Shown here: positions 26,913 through 42,937 of the stretch, one piece after another
Layout: each line of letters starts with the position of its first letter
How positions within the stretch are numbered: the stretch's first letter is position 1
NCBI RefSeq assembly: GCF_003790525.1
Contig: NZ_CP033635.1
Origin: Escherichia coli
GTDB lineage: Bacteria; Pseudomonadota; Gammaproteobacteria; Enterobacterales; Enterobacteriaceae
Length of the DNA: 64,000 bases
Strand: one strand, 5' to 3'
The notes under the pieces: model-generated
Seen by the model: only the letters and a program-made list of their open reading frames with translations
Database searches by the model: none
What the model was told of the DNA's origin: nothing
Translations under genes and position numbers: made by a program

Positions 26913-26925
26913 TCTTAAGAATTAG

Positions 26926-26975
26926 TGGTGCCCGGACTCGGAATCGAACCAAGGACACGGGGATTTTCAATCCCC
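26926..26975 (-). other. pheV: 50-nt 3' fragment of tRNA-Phe (acceptor/T-arm through anticodon-stem region): island junction direct repeat
   Basis: Minus strand reads ...GGGGATTGAAAATCCCCGTGTCCTTGGTTCGATTCCGAGTCCGGGCACCA, matching the 3' ~50 nt of tRNA-Phe as I recall it; 5' part of the tRNA is replaced by unrelated/degenerate sequence. Confidence 0.75.
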
Positions 26976-27068
26976 ATGTCATAAAATTCAGATAGTTACG
27001 GGCATGTCAAGTTGTTGTCGAAGTCTTTCATGCGCATCCGATCACATAACTGTCGATAGGACGCAGAT

Positions 27069-32049: not shown

Positions 32050-32773
32050 TGATGCAGCACGTCAGGAGCAACTGATTAAACGGATAAGAAAACTGCTGGC
32101 GCTGAGCCGGAATAACAGTAATCCCCATGAGGCAGGTCAGGCTCTTTCCCGCGCACAGGCGCTGATGCGGAAGCATGGTATCACCGAACTGGATGCTGAT
32201 ATTTCGGTGATAAAAACCTCATCATCAAAGGGAGCACCGTCAGAAGCGGAAAAAGTTCCGGTATGGATGGGGCGTCTTATGAATGTTGTTGCAGGGGCAT
32301 TCGGATGCCATACATACCTGGATTGGCGTATCACAACCGGAGGATACTGGCGGCGGATTGTCACATTTTATGGTTTTGGGGAGCGTCCGGTTGTGGCTGC
32401 GTATGCCTTTGATGTTCTCTGCCGGCAGATGCAAAAGGCGACAAAAGAGTATCTCTCAACCCAGAGCCGGAAATTAAAACACTCAACCCGTCGTGCAAGA
32501 GCTGCGATGTTTCGTGACGGCTGGGTTTATGGGGTGCGTGATGTGGTGGATGCATTCCGGCTCACGGAAGATGAGACGCGTGTAATGAATACGTGGCTGC
32601 AGAACCAGCAATTTGAGGGAATGGTCGTCTTCCGGGAGGTAAAGGACTGCCATGGCGGTGACCATGCACGCTGGCAGGGATACAACGAGGGGAAAAAGGC
32701 AACGCTGAATCACGGTGTTGGTTCCCGGGATCTGAGACCGGAAAGCCTGATATCAGGCGGAGGTGAGGTATGA
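32042..32773 (+). CDS. conserved ICE hypothetical protein
   Basis: Start at ATG 32042 (MNNDAARQ) overlapping parB stop; the longer track ORF from 31907 is an upstream read-through. Confidence 0.6.
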   Translation: MNNDAARQEQLIKRIRKLLALSRNNSNPHEAGQALSRAQALMRKHGITELDADISVIKTSSSKGAPSEAEKVPVWMGRLMNVVAGAFGCHTYLDWRITTGGYWRRIVTFYGFGERPVVAAYAFDVLCRQMQKATKEYLSTQSRKLKHSTRRARAAMFRDGWVYGVRDVVDAFRLTEDETRVMNTWLQNQQFEGMVVFREVKDCHGGDHARWQGYNEGKKATLNHGVGSRDLRPESLISGGGEV

Positions 32774-33348
32774 GTAATAACTTGTCACAGGCCACCAACG
32801 GACTGTTGATGCAGCTGGTGATGGATCTCAAAAGTGGCTATCTGCGCCGCTGTGAAGCGCTGGGGCTTTCCCGGGAAGAAATGCAGATGCTGCAGGGGCT
32901 GAGTATTGAGGAAATTCACTATCTGTCAAATTCAGAGGTGTCAGTGCTGCGGCTGGATATTAACCACAATAACCTTGTACGCATGCTGCAGCAGGCCAGG
33001 ACTGAACAGAAACGCCTGCAGCGAATCGATCGCGCTCTTGCACTGGGGGGATCGATTGAACTCATGGCGTTTTATTTTGGCCTTTCCAGTGTGGACGTTG
33101 CAGCACGGCGCCGTATTTCAGGAATTGATGTGCGCCCGGGGCGGGGTATCACACTCAGCGATGATGAAAACTCTGAACTCTGGAGACTGTGGCAGAAAGC
33201 AGGGATTAACGATGTGGAGAGCGCTGACGGGCTGGACGTCATGATGCTCTGTGCAGAGCAGATGAATATCCCGCTCACGGCCGTCTGGCATGCTGTCAGG
33301 GGGTGGCATACAGCCGGAAGCCCTGAACAGGTAAGGAATGCGTCATGA
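32770..33348 (+). CDS. conserved ICE hypothetical protein
   Basis: 192 aa; ATGA start/stop overlap with neighbours. Confidence 0.55.
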   Translation: MSNNLSQATNGLLMQLVMDLKSGYLRRCEALGLSREEMQMLQGLSIEEIHYLSNSEVSVLRLDINHNNLVRMLQQARTEQKRLQRIDRALALGGSIELMAFYFGLSSVDVAARRRISGIDVRPGRGITLSDDENSELWRLWQKAGINDVESADGLDVMMLCAEQMNIPLTAVWHAVRGWHTAGSPEQVRNAS

Positions 33349-33593
33349 AGATGAAAGAGCTGGTTCCCGGTCTGCTGAGCTGTCCCGGGGTACCGCCAGC
33401 CTGCCAGCGGAAGGCGGTGGACCTCGTTAACCGGTTTCGTCGCGGGGAGAGGAATTACCATGAACTGAAGGAAAAGGGATTCGGGTATATCAAGATTAAT
33501 GTTGGTCCGGACTGGCGGTTACTGAGCAGGAACCGGGGACAAACCTGGGCGCTGTTGAGTCACGAGCGATACAACAATATGAGACTGAGGTAG
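33345..33593 (+). CDS. small hypothetical protein (cargo cluster gene 1)
   Basis: 82 aa; ATGA overlap with upstream gene. Confidence 0.5.
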   Translation: MKMKELVPGLLSCPGVPPACQRKAVDLVNRFRRGERNYHELKEKGFGYIKINVGPDWRLLSRNRGQTWALLSHERYNNMRLR

Positions 33594-33599
33594 AGCAAA

Positions 33600-33776
33600 A
33601 TGACTGATTTTGGTTCAACTAAATATAACGCCAGTTTTGAAGAATGGCATGAAGTGTTAATGGACTATGCCGGGTTACGTGGTGGAAGTGCCGCCGATGC
33701 CGAAGCATGGCGCGATGACTATGAAGCTGGAAAAACGCCTGTCGAAGCATATTGCGATGAGTGGGGTGATGAATGA
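33600..33776 (+). CDS. small acidic hypothetical protein, 58 aa (below the ORF-track size cutoff)
   Basis: ATG 33600 to TGA 33774-33776, translated MTDFGSTKYNASFEEWHEVLMDYAGLRGGSAADAEAWRDDYEAGKTPVEAYCDEWGDE; stop overlaps next start (ATGA at 33773). Confidence 0.5.
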   Translation: MTDFGSTKYNASFEEWHEVLMDYAGLRGGSAADAEAWRDDYEAGKTPVEAYCDEWGDE

Positions 33777-33985
33777 GCAAAATTGACTATCAGGAGCTGC
33801 GTGAGGCGGCAGAAAAGGCAATGCATGACGACTGGGGATTTGACACGGACCTTTTCTATGAGCTGGTAGAACCATCGATTGTGCTGGCTCTGCTGGATGA
33901 ATGCGAGACGCTGGCAACTGAGAATGCGAAGCTGAAGACAGCACACCCTCAACTGTTCGGGAAAGCTGAAGGAGCGACAAAATGA
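33773..33985 (+). CDS. small protein with Ead/Ea22-like N-terminal motif (MSKIDYQELRE)
   Basis: 70 aa; shares N-terminal motif with the 34190 gene. Confidence 0.55.
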   Translation: MSKIDYQELREAAEKAMHDDWGFDTDLFYELVEPSIVLALLDECETLATENAKLKTAHPQLFGKAEGATK

Positions 33986-34203
33986 GCAAGCCAACCGACG
34001 AAGAAATAGTTCGGGTGTTGGAAGAACACGGGCGCTGTATGACTTACGTCGTGACCAACTGGCTTAGGGATAAATATCGCACACTCAAAACGGCATACGT
34101 TTTGCGTCGTCTAAAGAAACTGGAGTTCGACGGGAAAGTAAAGCGCGTTAACAGTTCTTATATAAGACAAATTTGCTGGGAGGCAACCAGTGAGCGAGAT
34201 TGA
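33982..34203 (+). CDS. small basic hypothetical protein (possible DNA-binding)
   Basis: 73 aa; overlapping start/stop in operon. Confidence 0.5.
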   Translation: MSKPTDEEIVRVLEEHGRCMTYVVTNWLRDKYRTLKTAYVLRRLKKLEFDGKVKRVNSSYIRQICWEATSERD

Positions 34204-34789
34204 TTATCAGGCGCTACGGGAACGTTATTCACCTAAGCCAGTACCTGAATGCTCTGTTTGTGGCGAGGAAATGTCAATACAGCGCATATCTGGAGCACAT
34301 GTTGTTTATGCCTGTTCCGGTGAGGGTGATGACGGATATTTTAAGATAGGGCGTACTTTTGCAGACGAACATTATGAAGAATCACGCGTAACAGTAGTTG
34401 ATGATAGTGATCCCGATGTGATTGCACTACTGGACGAACTGGAGGCAGCAAAATCAAAACTCAACGAGCAGCGTGAATATTACGAGGGAGTAATCGCGGA
34501 TGGGAGTAAGCGTATTGCAGAACTGGAAGCACGGGAAATAAAACCAGCCAAAGGCGAAGTTCTTGTCGTTGTATCTGGTTTTACTGGTTGCGGAAAAAGC
34601 GCCATTGCCGGGGAAATAGAAATCGCGATGAAGGCTATTGGTGTGCCGGTTCTATGGACTAATGGCGATGCGGAAAAGCGCATGACAGGAGCTGACTGGC
34701 TGACAGCGATTGAGATGTACAAACCAAATGTGCGCATCGTGGAAGTTAATGTGCCACGCGTCGCTGGCATTCGCACCAAAGGAGAGTGA
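34190..34789 (+). CDS. Ead/Ea22-like prophage-type protein (assignment from memory of the N-terminal motif)
   Basis: 199 aa; N-terminus MSEIDYQALRE, CxxC...C zinc-ribbon-like segment, coiled-coil middle. Confidence 0.55.
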   Translation: MSEIDYQALRERYSPKPVPECSVCGEEMSIQRISGAHVVYACSGEGDDGYFKIGRTFADEHYEESRVTVVDDSDPDVIALLDELEAAKSKLNEQREYYEGVIADGSKRIAELEAREIKPAKGEVLVVVSGFTGCGKSAIAGEIEIAMKAIGVPVLWTNGDAEKRMTGADWLTAIEMYKPNVRIVEVNVPRVAGIRTKGE

Positions 34790-34790
34790 T

Positions 34791-35306
34791 ATGGCGTTAA
34801 CACACCGCGAACTCTGTCAGATTGCGTACAAGTTCCTTAAGCGCAACGGGTTCAAGGTTTGTTTTCATGACCGCTTTATAGCTGTAACCAGTACCGGAGA
34901 GCAGCCAGATGCTATGGGATTCAGAAATTCAGCATCATGCCTGATAGAGGCGAAATGTTCTCGTGCTGACTTGTTGGCAGATAGAAAAAAGCGTTTTCGT
35001 AAAAATCCATCTCTTGGAATGGGCGACTGGCGATTCTTTATTAGTGAGCCGGGAATTATTTCAATTGAGGATTTACCACCTGGCTGGGGATTACTTCACG
35101 TTGTTAACGGAAGAGTACGGAAAGTACATGGGTGGCCCAGGGGTAATTGCTGTTGGGGTAATCCTGACGATAAGCCATTTACTGGAAATAAGCAGGTTGA
35201 ATGCGATTACATGTTATCTGCATTAAGGCGCATGGAGTTGAGAGGGCACCTTAATGAAATATATGACGGTGTAATTGTTAATAAGAAAGAAGGAAACGCA
35301 GCATGA
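34791..35306 (+). CDS. hypothetical protein with PD-(D/E)xK nuclease-like motif
   Basis: 171 aa from ATG 34791 with GGAGAG SD; motif ...EQPDAMGF...CLIEAKCS... Confidence 0.5.
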   Translation: MALTHRELCQIAYKFLKRNGFKVCFHDRFIAVTSTGEQPDAMGFRNSASCLIEAKCSRADLLADRKKRFRKNPSLGMGDWRFFISEPGIISIEDLPPGWGLLHVVNGRVRKVHGWPRGNCCWGNPDDKPFTGNKQVECDYMLSALRRMELRGHLNEIYDGVIVNKKEGNAA

Positions 35307-35701
35307 TCACTATTACCAAAGAGCGACTGCTGACAATCCAGCAGTGGCGCGAAACATACGGACCTGGTAGCAACGTTGTATTGCCAGCAGAAGAAGCGGA
35401 AGAACTGGCACGAATTGCACTGGCATTGCTGGAAGCAGAACCGCTGGTGCCCGTCATGTATAAAGGAATGAAACTGTTAACAAAAGAGGGGCTTGAGCTT
35501 ATTCGTGACGGTATTGCTGAGGCTACAGGACTGGAAGCAATGTGTATGGCTGAGGCTTTGCTGTCTGGGGCGTCAGTGCCGTCAGTGCCAGAAGAAATGT
35601 ATTGGCAGGATGCGCCTGTTGGAGGCAGTAGCAAAGCAGCTGCATACGCGACAGGCTGGAATGCCTGTCGCGCCGCAATGCTTCAGGGAAAAGGAAAGTG
35701 A
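35303..35701 (+). CDS. hypothetical protein, paralog A of a shared N-terminal module
   Basis: 132 aa; first ~45 aa nearly identical to the 36134 gene. Confidence 0.55.
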   Translation: MITITKERLLTIQQWRETYGPGSNVVLPAEEAEELARIALALLEAEPLVPVMYKGMKLLTKEGLELIRDGIAEATGLEAMCMAEALLSGASVPSVPEEMYWQDAPVGGSSKAAAYATGWNACRAAMLQGKGK

Positions 35702-35702
35702 T

Positions 35703-35924
35703 ATGGCTAACTCGTTACTTGAAACCTGCAACAACTGGCAGATTCAGAGGGCGGAGATTTTATCTCGCAATCCAGATATGGCAATGACAATTGATAATCT
35801 GGACACGCTAATTGAACGGACCGTGCGTTCTGCAATTGATATAGCACATCGAGTGGATTGGGATTTCAGAGAAGCGGAGCGGCTTGCTAAAGAGCAGGAG
35901 AAAGCAGCGGGTAAAGGAGACTGA
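35703..35924 (+). CDS. small hypothetical protein
   Basis: 73 aa from ATG 35703 (MANSLLETC); track ORF 35493 is an upstream extension. Confidence 0.5.
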   Translation: MANSLLETCNNWQIQRAEILSRNPDMAMTIDNLDTLIERTVRSAIDIAHRVDWDFREAERLAKEQEKAAGKGD

Positions 35925-35925
35925 T

Positions 35926-36123
35926 ATGGATAAAAACACCACTGCTTACTGGAATCTGTCACTTGATACCGAATGCCCAAAATGCGGTCACAATTTCGAT
36001 CTGCTTTGTGATCCAGATTTCTGGGAATTTTCTGGAGCAAAACAGGCATGTGAAGAAATAAAAGGTTACGAAACATGCTGTCCAGAATGTAACCATGAAT
36101 TTAAAACAGATTTTGTGTATTGA
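35926..36123 (+). CDS. small zinc-ribbon protein (CPKCG...CCPECNH)
   Basis: 65 aa from ATG 35926; two CxxC pairs. Confidence 0.5.
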   Translation: MDKNTTAYWNLSLDTECPKCGHNFDLLCDPDFWEFSGAKQACEEIKGYETCCPECNHEFKTDFVY

Positions 36124-36133
36124 GGCATAACAA

Positions 36134-36547
36134 ATGACCACTATAACCAAAGAGCGACTGCTGACAATCAAGCAGTGGCGCGAAACATACGGACCGGGTA
36201 GCAACGTTGTACTGCCAGCAGAAGAAGCGGAAGAACTGGCACGGATTGTACTGGCATCGCTGGAAGCGGAACCGGTGGCGTGGATGTGTGATGACGAAGA
36301 TGGTCGTGAATATAACGGTCATAACGAGTTTTCTTATGGAAGACGCGGGATTCCCCTTTACGCCGTCCCGCCAGCGCCGAATGGATTGGTTAAAGCCGTA
36401 GCTTTCTATGAGCAGGTTAAACGTGAAAATCCGCCAGTTGAAACGGGAGCATGGAAAGACGCCGTTGACTGGGTGCTTAAACAAGCTTGTCAGGCTGTAA
36501 ACACTGGCATCAATGAAAGAAGAACAATTGAAGAAAATGATGATTGA
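36134..36547 (+). CDS. hypothetical protein, paralog B of a shared N-terminal module
   Basis: 137 aa; N-terminal ~45 aa shared with the 35303 gene, C-terminus unrelated. Confidence 0.55.
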   Translation: MTTITKERLLTIKQWRETYGPGSNVVLPAEEAEELARIVLASLEAEPVAWMCDDEDGREYNGHNEFSYGRRGIPLYAVPPAPNGLVKAVAFYEQVKRENPPVETGAWKDAVDWVLKQACQAVNTGINERRTIEENDD

Positions 36548-36595
36548 GCCGGAAGCAGCAAAAAAGCGCATTGCAGAACTGGAGGAGCGCCGGTC

Positions 36596-36811
36596 ATGAG
36601 AAAAATCAGTGGAATGTTGAACCTGGAGAAGGCCAGGATGCAGTTGCGTGTTTTGTTATCAGGACCGGTTCCTGCGATCACTCCGATGTCGCATGCCGTG
36701 GCAATTAAAGTTGTGCCTGATGCTCCGGATGCGAGTGAGCGGAGGGTGGCTGAACTGGAACAGGCCTGCGCTGCCGCGGGCATTCGTATCAAAGGGGAAC
36801 AAGTGAAATGA
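36596..36811 (+). CDS. small hypothetical protein
   Basis: 71 aa; operon context. Confidence 0.45.
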   Translation: MRKISGMLNLEKARMQLRVLLSGPVPAITPMSHAVAIKVVPDAPDASERRVAELEQACAAAGIRIKGEQVK

Positions 36812-37029
36812 AACTGAAGATGCAGGCAATGGACGGCCCGGTGATTATAGAGAGTAGTGATGTGACACAGTTTTACCCTGACCATGAAAGTGGCGGGGAA
36901 CTCACCGCTGTTGAGTACCTTGCTGACGGGGGAAGAATCACCGCGAGGGTGAGTCACTCTTTTTATCAGGTTGCTGCGGCACTTGCCGGGGCATGGCGTG
37001 CGGATGATGCATCAAAAAGCGGTGGGTGA
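36808..37029 (+). CDS. small hypothetical protein
   Basis: 73 aa; ATGA overlap with upstream gene. Confidence 0.45.
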   Translation: MKLKMQAMDGPVIIESSDVTQFYPDHESGGELTAVEYLADGGRITARVSHSFYQVAAALAGAWRADDASKSGG

Positions 37030-37289
37030 GGACTGTGCCGGAATGATTGTCTGTTCCGAAGCTGCTGAACCGCGACATAAATTTTTTATGTTGCGGTGAA
37101 GCAGCCGGCAAACGAAGAGCGTCAGCGTATCAACAGTTAAGGAAAATATCTTCTGAAGCCGGACGCGACAGTCAGTCCGGTGGTGCTCGTGTGGTGAAGT
37201 GTTTAGCCTGCATCTTTGACAGGGTTCAGTTATAAGCATTTCGGAAACCGTTCCCCGGCGCAGTCTGCCGGGATTTAAGGAGTTTATTT

Positions 37290-38555
37290 ATGGCGCTACC
37301 TGCAGAAAGCCTTATTGCGCATACGCTCAGAAAAATGAAGGCCAGCATGGCAGAGAAAGCCAGTCGTGAGGACGGGAGGATACGCAGTGGGCTGTTGTTT
37401 ACCGGCAATGTTCACGATTCGTATCCCCGCAGGCTGTTGCTGGATACGCGCCTTTCTCCCCTTGATAAAACTGCGTGGATGATGATTCGTCTGCATGCCC
37501 TGAATAATGAGGGCGCAGTATTTCCGACGTACGATGAACTGCAGTTACAACTGGCATCTCCCGGGTGCGGGAAGGCGTCCCGTGAAACAGTGAGCCGGGT
37601 GCTGACAATGCTGCGGCTTACGGGCTGGCTGAGTCTGTGTAAGCGGGTCAGGGATGAAAAAGGGCGGGTCCGGGGGAATATTTACGCCCTGCATGATGAG
37701 CCACTGACCTGCTGTGATGCAGAAAAGTTTGACCCACGATACCTGGATATGGTTCTGGATACTGTGAGCAGGAGCCGGAACAAGACAATCCGGCACACAG
37801 CCAGTGAAGTGCTCAGTGATATCAAAAATGAGCCCGGTATGCGGCATTACCACAGCCATATCACTCTGTTTGAATCGCGTATGGGGGCAGCACAGACACC
37901 TGGTCAGCTGGCGGCGCGTCAGCGGGTGAACCCGATGGTGAATGAAAACACAGGCAGAGAGAGTGGTTCGGATTCCGTACATACCCCTGCACCTGTCGTG
38001 CAGGTAACCGAACTCAGTGCTCCGTTAACCGAACTCAGTGAAAAACAGGAAATGAGCCCACTCAGTTCGGATTCCGTACCGCCTGAAAAATCAGTAACTT
38101 ATCACTCGGTTCGGAAACCGAACAATTACGTACGTAATATCACACACAGTGTGATTAAAAATACGTACGTATTGCCTGAGTCGGTGAAATCGCAAATCAG
38201 CACAGAAGACACGGACATGCTGACAAAACAACTGCAGGCGTTGCCGGAAGAACTGGCAGGTAGTGTGCTGAGCAGCCTGTCACAGATGCTCAGCAAAAAC
38301 ACGCTCCAGAATCCGGTTGGCTGGATGCTGGCTGTGATGAAACGTGCGCGTGAGGGAAGTTTTAATACGCCGGATATGTCCGTGCATGAATCCCGGTCGC
38401 CAGCCCGTGCACCATATCAGCCTGTGTACAACCGTGATGAACGTGAACGTCGTCGCAGGAAAGTGGCGTCACCTGAAACGGTGAGCAACATTGTCGCAGA
38501 ATTCCGTGCCAGCCTGAAACGTGCAAATGCTGCCCGTCTGGCGGCGCGTGTTTGA
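37290..38555 (+). CDS. putative ICE replication/regulatory protein (winged-helix-like N-terminal region), adjacent to repeat array
   Basis: 421 aa; stop lies 2 nt before the 36-bp repeat array; resembles pathogenicity-island replication proteins in position. Confidence 0.55.
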   Translation: MALPAESLIAHTLRKMKASMAEKASREDGRIRSGLLFTGNVHDSYPRRLLLDTRLSPLDKTAWMMIRLHALNNEGAVFPTYDELQLQLASPGCGKASRETVSRVLTMLRLTGWLSLCKRVRDEKGRVRGNIYALHDEPLTCCDAEKFDPRYLDMVLDTVSRSRNKTIRHTASEVLSDIKNEPGMRHYHSHITLFESRMGAAQTPGQLAARQRVNPMVNENTGRESGSDSVHTPAPVVQVTELSAPLTELSEKQEMSPLSSDSVPPEKSVTYHSVRKPNNYVRNITHSVIKNTYVLPESVKSQISTEDTDMLTKQLQALPEELAGSVLSSLSQMLSKNTLQNPVGWMLAVMKRAREGSFNTPDMSVHESRSPARAPYQPVYNRDERERRRRKVASPETVSNIVAEFRASLKRANAARLAARV

Positions 38556-38556
38556 T

Positions 38557-39384
38557 GGTTAAAAATCGTACGGTGTTGGCAGTGCCAACAGTGGTTAAAA
38601 ATTGTGCGGTGTTGGCAGTGCCAACAGTGATTAAAAAATGTACGGTGTTGGCAGTGCCAACAGTGGTTAAAAATTGCGCGGTGTTGGCAGTGCCAACAGC
38701 GGTTAAAAAGTGTACGGCGTTGGCAGTGCCAACAGTGATTGAAAAATGTACGGTGTTGGCAGTGCCAACAGTGATTAAAAAATGTACGGTGTTGGCAGTG
38801 CCAACGGTGATTAAAAAATGTACGGTGTTGGCAGTGCCAACAGTGGTTAAAAATTGCGCGGTGTTGGCAGTGTCAACAGTGGTTAAAAATTGTGCGGTGT
38901 TGGCAGTGCCAACAGTGATTAAAAAATGTACGGTGTTGGCAGTGCCAACAGTGGTTAAAAATTGCGCGGTGTTGGCAGTGCCAACAGCGGTTAAAAAGTG
39001 TACGGCGTTGGCAGTGCCAACAGTGATTGAAAAATGTACGGTGTTGGCAGTGCCAACAGTGATTAAAAAATGTACGGTGTTGGCAGTGCCAACGGTGATT
39101 AAAAAATGTACGGTGTTGGCAGTGCCAACAGTGGTTAAAAATTGCGCGGTGTTGGCAGTGCCAACAGTGGTTAAAAATTGTGCGGTGTTGGCAGTGCCAA
39201 CAGTGATTAAAAAATGTACGGTGTTGGCAGTGCCAACAGCGGTTAAAAAGTGTACGGCGTTGGCAGTAGCAACAGCGATTAAAAAATGTACGGTGTTGCC
39301 AGTGGCAACAGTGGTTAAAAAGTGTCCGGCGTTGCCAGTGGCAACAGTGTTTGAAAATTGTACTGAGTTGGCACTGCCAACATG
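38557..39384. repeat. array of 23 tandem 36-bp direct repeats, each with a 17-bp palindrome TGTTGGCAGTGCCAACA (iteron/centromere-like)
   Basis: Directly counted units of 36 bp from 38557; higher-order periodicity of 288 bp (8 units); last units degenerate. Confidence 0.9.
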
Positions 39385-39486
39385 ACGTAATTTCAGTCAT
39401 TCCTTTTTTTATTTTTGATTGTCAGATCTCCGTCTGCAGGCTGACTATTTCAGCCCGATATCCTTTTCTTTTGCCGGAGATATAAC

Positions 39487-42559: not shown

Positions 42560-42725
42560 TGCTTTGCAGCCAACCAATCTCCCGGTGGTCTGAGAGGGAG
42601 GCTTACGCGACCACACTGTCATCTTCGGATGACCAGCCAATGTTCCAGCAGTCTGAGAGGAGCGCCTTCGGGTGACTGCCAGCCAATGTTTCAGCGATCT
42701 GAGAGAAACGCCTTCGGGTGATTGC
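42560..42725 (+). repeat. three imperfect direct repeats (~45-60 bp) each ending in a UUCG-tetraloop hairpin
   Basis: Units contain CAGCCAA...TCTGAGAG...(CATC TTCG GATG or CGCC TTCG GGTG). Confidence 0.6.
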
Positions 42726-42937
42726 AATATCCTCGTAGCCTGAAAGGGGATGCCTTTATGGCGGTACATCCGTTTAGCCTCTGGGAACGGATATCACCAC
42801 TGGTGATTGAGGTACGTTTAACTGCACAGACAGCCGGAAATTCAGCTGATTCCGGCATCCCCGACGGGAACTATCACTCCCGTCAGGGCTGGTGATGTTC
42901 TCCGTCATATCTTTTTTTACTCCATGGAGAAATCATC

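Follow-up and report, generated by a model that had tools for sequence, protein, structure and literature searches.

The closest described relatives of the protein considered here are the MmcB-like proteins (PF06319, DUF1052, COG5321). A 2005 study, which gave PF06319/DUF1052 the motif 'AD-E(V/I/C)K', predicted that these proteins are active nucleases with kinship to the archaeal Holliday-junction resolvases (AHJR), in a role then unknown (PMC1189080). In Caulobacter, the SOS-regulated endonuclease MmcB is needed for tolerance of mitomycin C and cisplatin (PMC9578287). The subject of this report is a gene for a 171-amino acid (aa) protein at positions 34791–35306 of a 64,000-nucleotide (nt) stretch of Escherichia coli DNA (assembly GCF_003790525.1, contig NZ_CP033635.1; the whole stretch is called the window), which represents a chromosomal SPI-7/PAPI-1-type integrative conjugative element (ICE). 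Very probably the product is a PD-(D/E)xK homologue of the MmcB-like proteins. The reading favoured here, with moderate confidence, is that it is a stand-alone metal-dependent endonuclease from a sister branch of that family, serving the replication, recombination or repair of the element's own DNA.

Catalytic motif and predicted fold

The open reading frame (ORF) named in the original prediction is present and complete. The claim made for it was that the segment GEQPDAMGF...SCLIEAKCS (residues 36–44 and 49–57) has PD-x(n)-(D/E)xK spacing; the candidate catalytic residues are D40 and, 12 residues apart from it, E53 with K55. On its own such a pattern is weak evidence and could arise by chance: of the 157 stop-free stretches in the window that are 100 aa or longer, 12 contain PD-x(8-30)-[DE]xK, and so do 6.2% of shuffles of the nuclease protein. 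It is conservation that upholds the spacing. In an alignment of 105 relatives (less than 70% mutual identity; mean column identity 31%), ten columns are invariant: E37, D40, E53, K55, D60, K67, R70, G78, R81 and W99. Another 16 are at least 90% conserved (H5, L8, P39, G43, S49, S57, R58, F61, D64, G76, P96, G100, L101, E137, R146 and R147). The motif is judged real because E37, D40, E53 and K55 do not vary across relatives as diverse as these; homologues from large lytic phages retain the same catalytic residues as the window protein. The features of the protein, all on the plus strand, are as follows.

34791–35306, plus strand: nuclease gene, 171 aa, complete including the stop codon (from the ORF list and the sequence, with an AlphaFold2 model).
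34791–35129, plus strand: core domain, residues 1–113, the portion in common with the large lytic-phage homologues (from the secondary structure of the model; tblastn matches in Ackermannviridae span residues 4–113).
34899–34955, plus strand: codons of the catalytic motif, E37-x-P39-D40 ... E53-x-K55 (invariance in the 105 relatives; alignment to D...ECK of 3DNX/SPO1766 and of PF06319 proteins).
34959–35033, plus strand: conserved post-catalytic segment, S57-R58-x-D60-(F/L)61-x-x-D64-x-x-K67-x-x-R70 ... G76-x-G78-x-x-R81 (invariant or at least 90% conserved columns).
35190–35267, plus strand: C-terminal helical region, residues 134–159, with conserved E137, S143, R146 and R147.

The SRxDFxxDxK stretch of the post-catalytic segment is common to MmcB-like proteins, and the basic residues of the segment probably contact DNA.

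AlphaFold2, run on the alignment of the 105 relatives, returned a very confident model (predicted local distance difference test, pLDDT, 95.7; predicted template-modelling score, pTM, 0.89). Its core comprises a helix (5–18), three strands (23–26, 41–45 and 48–54), two helices (58–64 and 68–71) and three further strands (80–85, 100–105 and 108–113); the C-terminal helices span 134–150 and 154–159. In the model D40 stands at the beginning of the second strand, and E53 and K55 at the end of the third; this predicted placement, with the aspartate on strand 2 and the (D/E)xK on strand 3, is the canonical geometry of the PD-(D/E)xK superfamily. Foldseek matches the model to 3DNX at E = 9.5e-6; CRISPR-ancillary nucleases (Can2/Cdn1) and restriction enzymes are also among the structural neighbours. 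The test proposed with the original prediction, whether the fold is restriction-endonuclease-like, has thus been made, and the nuclease-fold reading stands because the predicted fold is PD-(D/E)xK.

Relation to described nuclease families

Family-level comparisons place the protein. A profile of the family, searched against PDB sequences, finds 3DNX at E = 2.3e-4; the two align at D, E and K and have an ECK-SR-DF-x-D-K stretch in common. It finds Hjc at E of about 0.06. Scanned singly against Pfam, members of the set of 105 match Hjc (37), MmcB-like (20) or UPF0102 (3) at E ≤ 0.1; one of the 105 matches PF06319 at E ≤ 0.001, and the window protein itself gives no PF06319 match even at E ≤ 10. 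Alignments were compared as well: all proteins retrieved with the 3DNX segment carry PF06319, and hhalign pairs the family alignment with the alignment of PF06319 proteins at 97.2% probability and E = 3.6e-11. Homology of the nuclease to the PF06319 proteins and to their solved structure, 3DNX, is thereby established. The D...E(V/I/C)K element followed by S-R-A-D-F-x-x-D-x-K is recognizable in the window protein as D40...E53-A-K55-C-S-R-A-D-L-L-A-D-R-K-K, and the family consensus ECKxSRxDFLADxKK compares with IECKSSRADFxSDxKW in PF06319 proteins.

The nuclease represents a divergent branch, sister to the MmcB-like family and without a model of its own; it is homologous to that family but not a member as Pfam defines one. 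'Sister branch' is preferred to formal membership because the query matches no Pfam, NCBIfam or PADLOC model. What is common to it and to the MmcB-like proteins (3DNX, SPO1766; Caulobacter crescentus MmcB) is the catalytic D...E-C/A-K, which aligns, and the S-R-x-D-F-x-x-D-x-K helix that follows the catalytic residues; among relatives at 35–40% identity, some are already called 'MmcB family DNA repair protein' in UniProt. There are also differences. The nuclease branch has 'GE-x-PD' where MmcB-like proteins have 'G-L-R-V-D'; R70...P-x-x-G-M-G forms an inserted loop, and H5, W99 and E137 are conserved residues peculiar to the branch; and it is carried by phages, phage-plasmids and ICEs, whereas mmcB is a chromosomal SOS gene.

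Other small nucleases lie further off. The archaeal Hjc/Hje enzymes (PF01870; 1HH1, 1OB8, 2EO0) are likewise minimal PD-(D/E)xK nucleases in which helix 1 precedes D...ExK, but the likeness to Hjc is marginal and the query itself has no Hjc match; helix 1 of the nuclease carries H5 (with E/D7) in place of the canonical Hjc glutamate, and the additional C-terminal helical region is absent from Hjc/Hje. YraN/UPF0102 (PF02021; 3FOV) is matched by one of the 105 relatives at E ≤ 0.001, and the match is far weaker than that to MmcB-like proteins; the protein falls outside PF02021 and the name 'YraN family' is unjustified. T7 endonuclease I, lambda NinG/Rap and RusA occupy a niche like that of the nuclease, in phage replication or nin modules, and T7 endonuclease I is a PD-(D/E)xK enzyme too, encoded near the primase-helicase gene. 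However, none of the three gives a detectable sequence match or appears among the top 60 structural matches; the nuclease co-occurs with NinG/Rap and with a RuvC-like resolvase, and so is no simple replacement for them.

Genomic context

In all six of the large lytic-phage records inspected, the gene stands directly upstream of a gp61-like DNA primase gene. These fall into two size classes: the Ackermannviridae S118 and Coodle; the 158-kb Klebsiella phage phi1_146021, which is syntenic; the Vibrio phages D507 and Bakedbeans (155–157 kb); and Mardecavirus C2. A homing endonuclease is inserted between nuclease gene and primase in Coodle, and in Mardecavirus C2 the order is DNA polymerase I and two helicases, then nuclease, then primase. 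In a published comparison of Vi01-like phages, the nuclease homologue (as 'putative adenylosuccinate synthase') figures beside primase in the list of conserved proteins. For neighbours in Vibrio and Kuttervirus phages, PHROG scans returned families of unknown function only.

Temperate-type contexts were surveyed in 80 IMG/VR loci, with upstream neighbours counted in 79 and downstream neighbours in 77. The largest upstream cluster is Ea22-like (14 of 79) and the largest downstream cluster DUF551-like (14 of 77). NinG/Rap adjoins the nuclease gene in 8, and NinB/Orf in 5, of about 78 loci; only 2 of 79 have a methyltransferase directly upstream. In the nin region of the lambdoid Vibrio phage D277 the order is NinB, a hypothetical gene, a methyltransferase, the nuclease and an HNH gene, the nuclease thus lying three genes downstream of NinB. 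A trio of Ead/Ea22-like, nuclease and DUF551-like genes is found again in the early-left operon of Shigella phage Ss-VASD, downstream of RecT-exo-ssb and before xis-int, and in the C1-controlled (C1-repressed) hea operon of P7.

In the window, the ICE genes run in the order ParA, dnaB-PI, ParB, DUF2786, DUF2857, ParE-like, a phage ea-type patch, STY4528 replication protein, topoisomerase III, single-stranded DNA-binding protein (SSB) and pilus genes. The patch consists of Ead/Ea22-like genes, the nuclease and two truncated DUF551-like ORFs. The nuclease therefore stands between dnaB-PI/ParB on one side and the STY4528 replication protein, topoisomerase III and SSB on the other. The 'cargo cluster' of the original prediction is right only in rough terms: the patch is phage-derived and of ea type, and it lies inside the partition/replication module of the ICE.

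Proposed role and alternatives

Catalytic activity is likely; a role in replication, recombination or repair stands at about an even chance. D40, E53 and K55, together with E37 and/or H5/E7, would bind Mg2+ and hydrolyse phosphodiester bonds, and K67, R70, R81, R146 and R147 would grip the DNA backbone. The substrate may be a DNA structure (a branched, stalled or damaged replication or recombination intermediate) and not a specific sequence, and the enzyme would help to replicate, recombine or repair the element's own DNA once induction, infection or transfer has taken place. The role in DNA metabolism is proposed because the genomic contexts are those of primase, helicase, NinB/NinG and RecT-exo.

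Several observations weigh against this role. Searched as a single sequence, the protein matches nothing in NCBIfam, PADLOC, PDB sequences or Pfam (in Pfam even at E ≤ 10), and the literature on Upf89.0 of P7 and related accessions yielded no biochemical or genetic data for the branch. Although mmcB is SOS-regulated, a LexA-box search found no credible site near the nuclease gene; the nearest one-mismatch matches, at 33187 and 33380, both fall within upstream coding sequence. Immediate neighbours differ widely from locus to locus (about 78 viral loci give 47 upstream and 41 downstream clusters), and the search for a conserved partner gene in the 80 IMG/VR loci turned up no obligate partner. 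In temperate phages the gene is located in the ea region or in nin regions beside NinB and NinG, and the ea region typically houses dispensable accessory genes; many E. coli copies are truncated or chimeric, and the gene is thus evidently dispensable in E. coli. Lastly, Vi01-like phages also encode a RuvC-like Holliday-junction resolvase. The simple statement that the protein is the element's Holliday-junction resolvase was rejected, since either a RuvC-like resolvase (Vi01-like phages) or an adjacent NinG/Rap (temperate loci) is present as well.

The same co-occurring resolvases, truncated copies and ea-region location lend some room to a different account, which we consider unlikely but the most serious of the rivals: that the gene is a moron-like accessory whose product attacks competing or host DNA, in defence, superinfection exclusion, anti-defence or host-DNA degradation. 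Its position in a lambdoid ea-type accessory region, and in a patchwork of recombined phage genes within the ICE, would suit such a role, as would the mosaic, highly variable neighbours, the frequent truncated or chimeric copies in E. coli, and the presence of Can2/Cdn1 and restriction enzymes among structural neighbours. Yet no PADLOC model matches the protein or its neighbours (with PADLOC-DB 2.0 the nuclease has no match, and neighbours give only noise, at E ≥ 0.03); no sensor, ATPase or methyltransferase partner is conserved alongside; and large lytic phages keep homologues beside primase, a position that suits a housekeeping role in DNA metabolism. The original prediction had offered 'resolvase-like' and 'defence/anti-defence' as alternatives: the former is the closer, as MmcB-like proteins and archaeal resolvases are nearest, while the latter gained no positive support, with neither a PADLOC match nor a conserved partner. 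A sequence-specific endonuclease of restriction or homing type is a good deal less probable. It would draw on the few loci in which a DNA methyltransferase is the upstream neighbour, and on the methyltransferases about 2.5 kb downstream in Ss-VASD; but no methyltransferase is annotated in the cluster in the window (the annotation being that of the near-identical AR_0089 locus), and adjacency in 2 of 79 loci falls short of what a Type II restriction-modification system would lead one to expect. Moreover, a protein of 171 aa without a separate recognition domain resembles minimal structure-specific nucleases; its nearest relatives are MmcB-like proteins and Hjc, not restriction enzymes; and sequence conservation as strong as this (2614 cluster representatives in a single-sequence search) is atypical of restriction enzymes.

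Two further accounts would deny that there is an active nuclease at all. PD-(D/E)xK derivatives that have lost activity exist; still, a DNA-binding or scaffold protein that merely kept the nuclease fold is quite improbable, because the full acidic/lysine catalytic set is invariant in the 105 sequences, which would be unexpected after loss of catalysis. That the motif is a chance occurrence in a spurious or decayed ORF has a negligible probability. It would appeal to the appearance of the motif in about 6% of shuffles and to the RefSeq annotation (from the Prokaryotic Genome Annotation Pipeline, PGAP) of the AR_0089 locus (L001), where only the first 179 nt (window 34791–34969, L001 12792–12970) are annotated, as a 'frameshifted' pseudogene. 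The 516-nt ORF of AR_0089 is, however, uninterrupted, differs from that of the window by one synonymous base and encodes the same protein; the pseudogene flag is therefore an annotation artefact, and the pseudogene reading is ruled out. Full-length identity of 99% to Upf89.0 of P7 and to a cluster of 1363 sequences, residue-level conservation over thousands of homologues and the very confident model argue likewise against a spurious ORF.

The favoured reading, an MmcB-like nuclease in the service of element DNA metabolism, could be widened: the family might be an unrecognized, widely conserved component of mobile-element replication and repair, a primase-coupled MmcB-like nuclease that clears crosslinks, stalled forks or other blocked intermediates while phages, phage-plasmids and ICEs replicate. 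This is a speculative extension, and we think it unlikely. If it held, lytic Ackermannviridae, Vibrio, lambdoid and P1/P7 phages would share with ICEs a primase-coupled nuclease, which would give MmcB tractable phage models. The synteny with primase may also open an experimentally convenient way to study the biochemistry of MmcB-type repair nucleases.

Distribution and naming

The gene is common. Of 5426 complete E. coli genomes, 909 contain at least 80% of it at no less than 95% nucleotide identity, and a genome may have it at as many as six places; it is also carried by 289 plasmid records, and tblastn finds homologues in 641 phage records. A HMMER scan of 1.84 billion cluster representatives (50% identity) yields 2614 relatives at E ≤ 0.001, 1384 of them at E ≤ 1e-10; matches in the AlphaFold database (AFDB) come from Enterobacterales, Xanthomonas, Burkholderia, Marinobacter, Bacteroidota, Deinococcus and cyanobacteria. 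Close copies are full length: Upf89.0 of P7 (tblastn) and proteins of Shiga toxin (Stx)-converting phages are each 99.4% identical to the window protein over all 171 residues, and the 171-aa cluster P0003 (1363 sequences) is 99% identical over its full length. The window gene is 96–99% identical in nucleotide sequence to copies in lambdoid and P1/P7-type phages, and by this measure would have reached the ICE by recent exchange with such phages.

Names on the relatives are inconsistent: uncharacterized, YraN family, MmcB family, endonuclease, Holliday junction resolvase and adenylosuccinate synthase all occur. A PHROGs search with the single sequence gave families 9263 and 631, of unknown function, and a weak match to 'DNA repair protein' at E = 0.003. 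Homologues in Vi01-like and related Ackermannviridae (for example L007 3980–4597 and L009 2980–3588) are widely named 'putative adenylosuccinate synthase'; this name has neither fold nor sequence support, and seems to have spread as an annotation error. The gene, which about one in six complete E. coli genomes carry and which also occurs on hundreds of plasmids and phage-plasmids and in Shiga-toxin phages, is seldom correctly named in databases and goes under 'hypothetical' or under names that do not fit it. An MmcB-like/AHJR-like assignment corrects those labels and offers a family worth modelling in Pfam or NCBIfam; no system of a new kind comes to light.

Fusions of the nuclease domain are rare and heterogeneous, and most look like mosaic recombination or gene-call artefacts. 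Five Salmonella proteins (P0093, P0097, P0099, P0103 and P0109) have an in-frame Ea22-like N-terminal coil and no separate start codon. P0142 has a TniB/AAA_22-like ATPase fused N-terminally, P0188 a dATP/dGTP pyrophosphohydrolase fused C-terminally; P0211 and P0248 have C-terminal tails with a GS...DxD pattern, nucleotidyltransferase-like, which Pfam does not recognize. A DUF551 fusion is also among these rare cases.

The gene and its surroundings in the element

The nuclease ORF runs without interruption from its ATG (34791–34793) to its stop codon (35304–35306) and encodes MALTHRELCQ...KKEGNAA. Its signals and neighbours are these.

34779–34784, plus strand: AAGGAG, a Shine-Dalgarno-like sequence 6 nt 5' of the nuclease ATG (read from the sequence).
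34190–34789, plus strand: upstream neighbour, a 199-aa Ead/Ea22-like ORF that forms a recurrent module with the nuclease gene (PGAP annotation of the AR_0089 locus).
35303–35701, plus strand: downstream neighbour, an ORF of 132 aa that overlaps the nuclease stop at its start and has its first 145 nt repeated at 36134–36278.

One nucleotide separates the TGA of the upstream ORF (34787–34789) from the nuclease ATG, and the start of the downstream ORF overlaps the nuclease stop as ATGA (35303–35306); the gene is translationally coupled to both neighbours. A scan of 32500–37500 found no plus-strand promoter and no convincing terminator, a result that is compatible with co-transcription but not informative. 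Given the tight ORF junctions and the lack of a promoter or terminator in that interval, the gene looks like part of a long plus-strand operon, and it is probably co-transcribed with the partition and replication genes of the ICE.

The exact 2.2-kb arrangement around the nuclease is present in only 24 genomes. The 145-nt direct repeat (35303–35447 and 36134–36278, 93% identity) encodes the N-terminus MxTITKERLLTIxQWRETYGPGSNVVLPAEEAEELARI of the two short DUF551-like ORFs of the patch, which PGAP treats as truncated genes; DUF551/EaA-type genes share this N-terminus. Common 5' ends of this sort probably drive mosaic recombination of ea-type genes.

Other features of the window

Directly after the gene for the STY4528-family island replication protein (37290–38555) begins a tandem array (38556–39382, inside an ORF at 38552–39385) in which a 36-nt unit occurs 23 times, with 89% matches. 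The unit has the consensus TGGTTAAAAAATGTACGGTGTTGGCAGTGCCAACAG; each unit contains a short palindrome, and the copy number is not the same in AR_0089. The array could be an iteron or origin-like array, or could encode a repeat protein.

Rfam models score above the gathering threshold at three places, all on the plus strand: a STAXI RNA (42617–42770, 139 bits) in the ICE between the topoisomerase III and STY4534 genes, the Hfq-binding small RNA isrN (17137–17279, 124 bits) and a JUMPstart element (4256–4294, 54 bits). PGAP annotates a 78-nt tRNA-Ser at 26924–27001 (L001 4927–5004), just 5' of the parA gene of the ICE; ARAGORN calls no tRNA there, either in the window or at the AR_0089 counterpart, and the annotation may mark a partial tRNA or a remnant of an attachment (att) site. 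Collinearity between the window and AR_0089 starts only at about 26916, and the two strains differ in the left flank. In BLAST comparisons, the segments 45129–45385/45511–45767 and 44977–45088/45407–45518 each align to L001 at two offsets about 380–430 nt apart, at 94–96% identity, which indicates an internal duplication near an Rpn-family nuclease/transposase gene.
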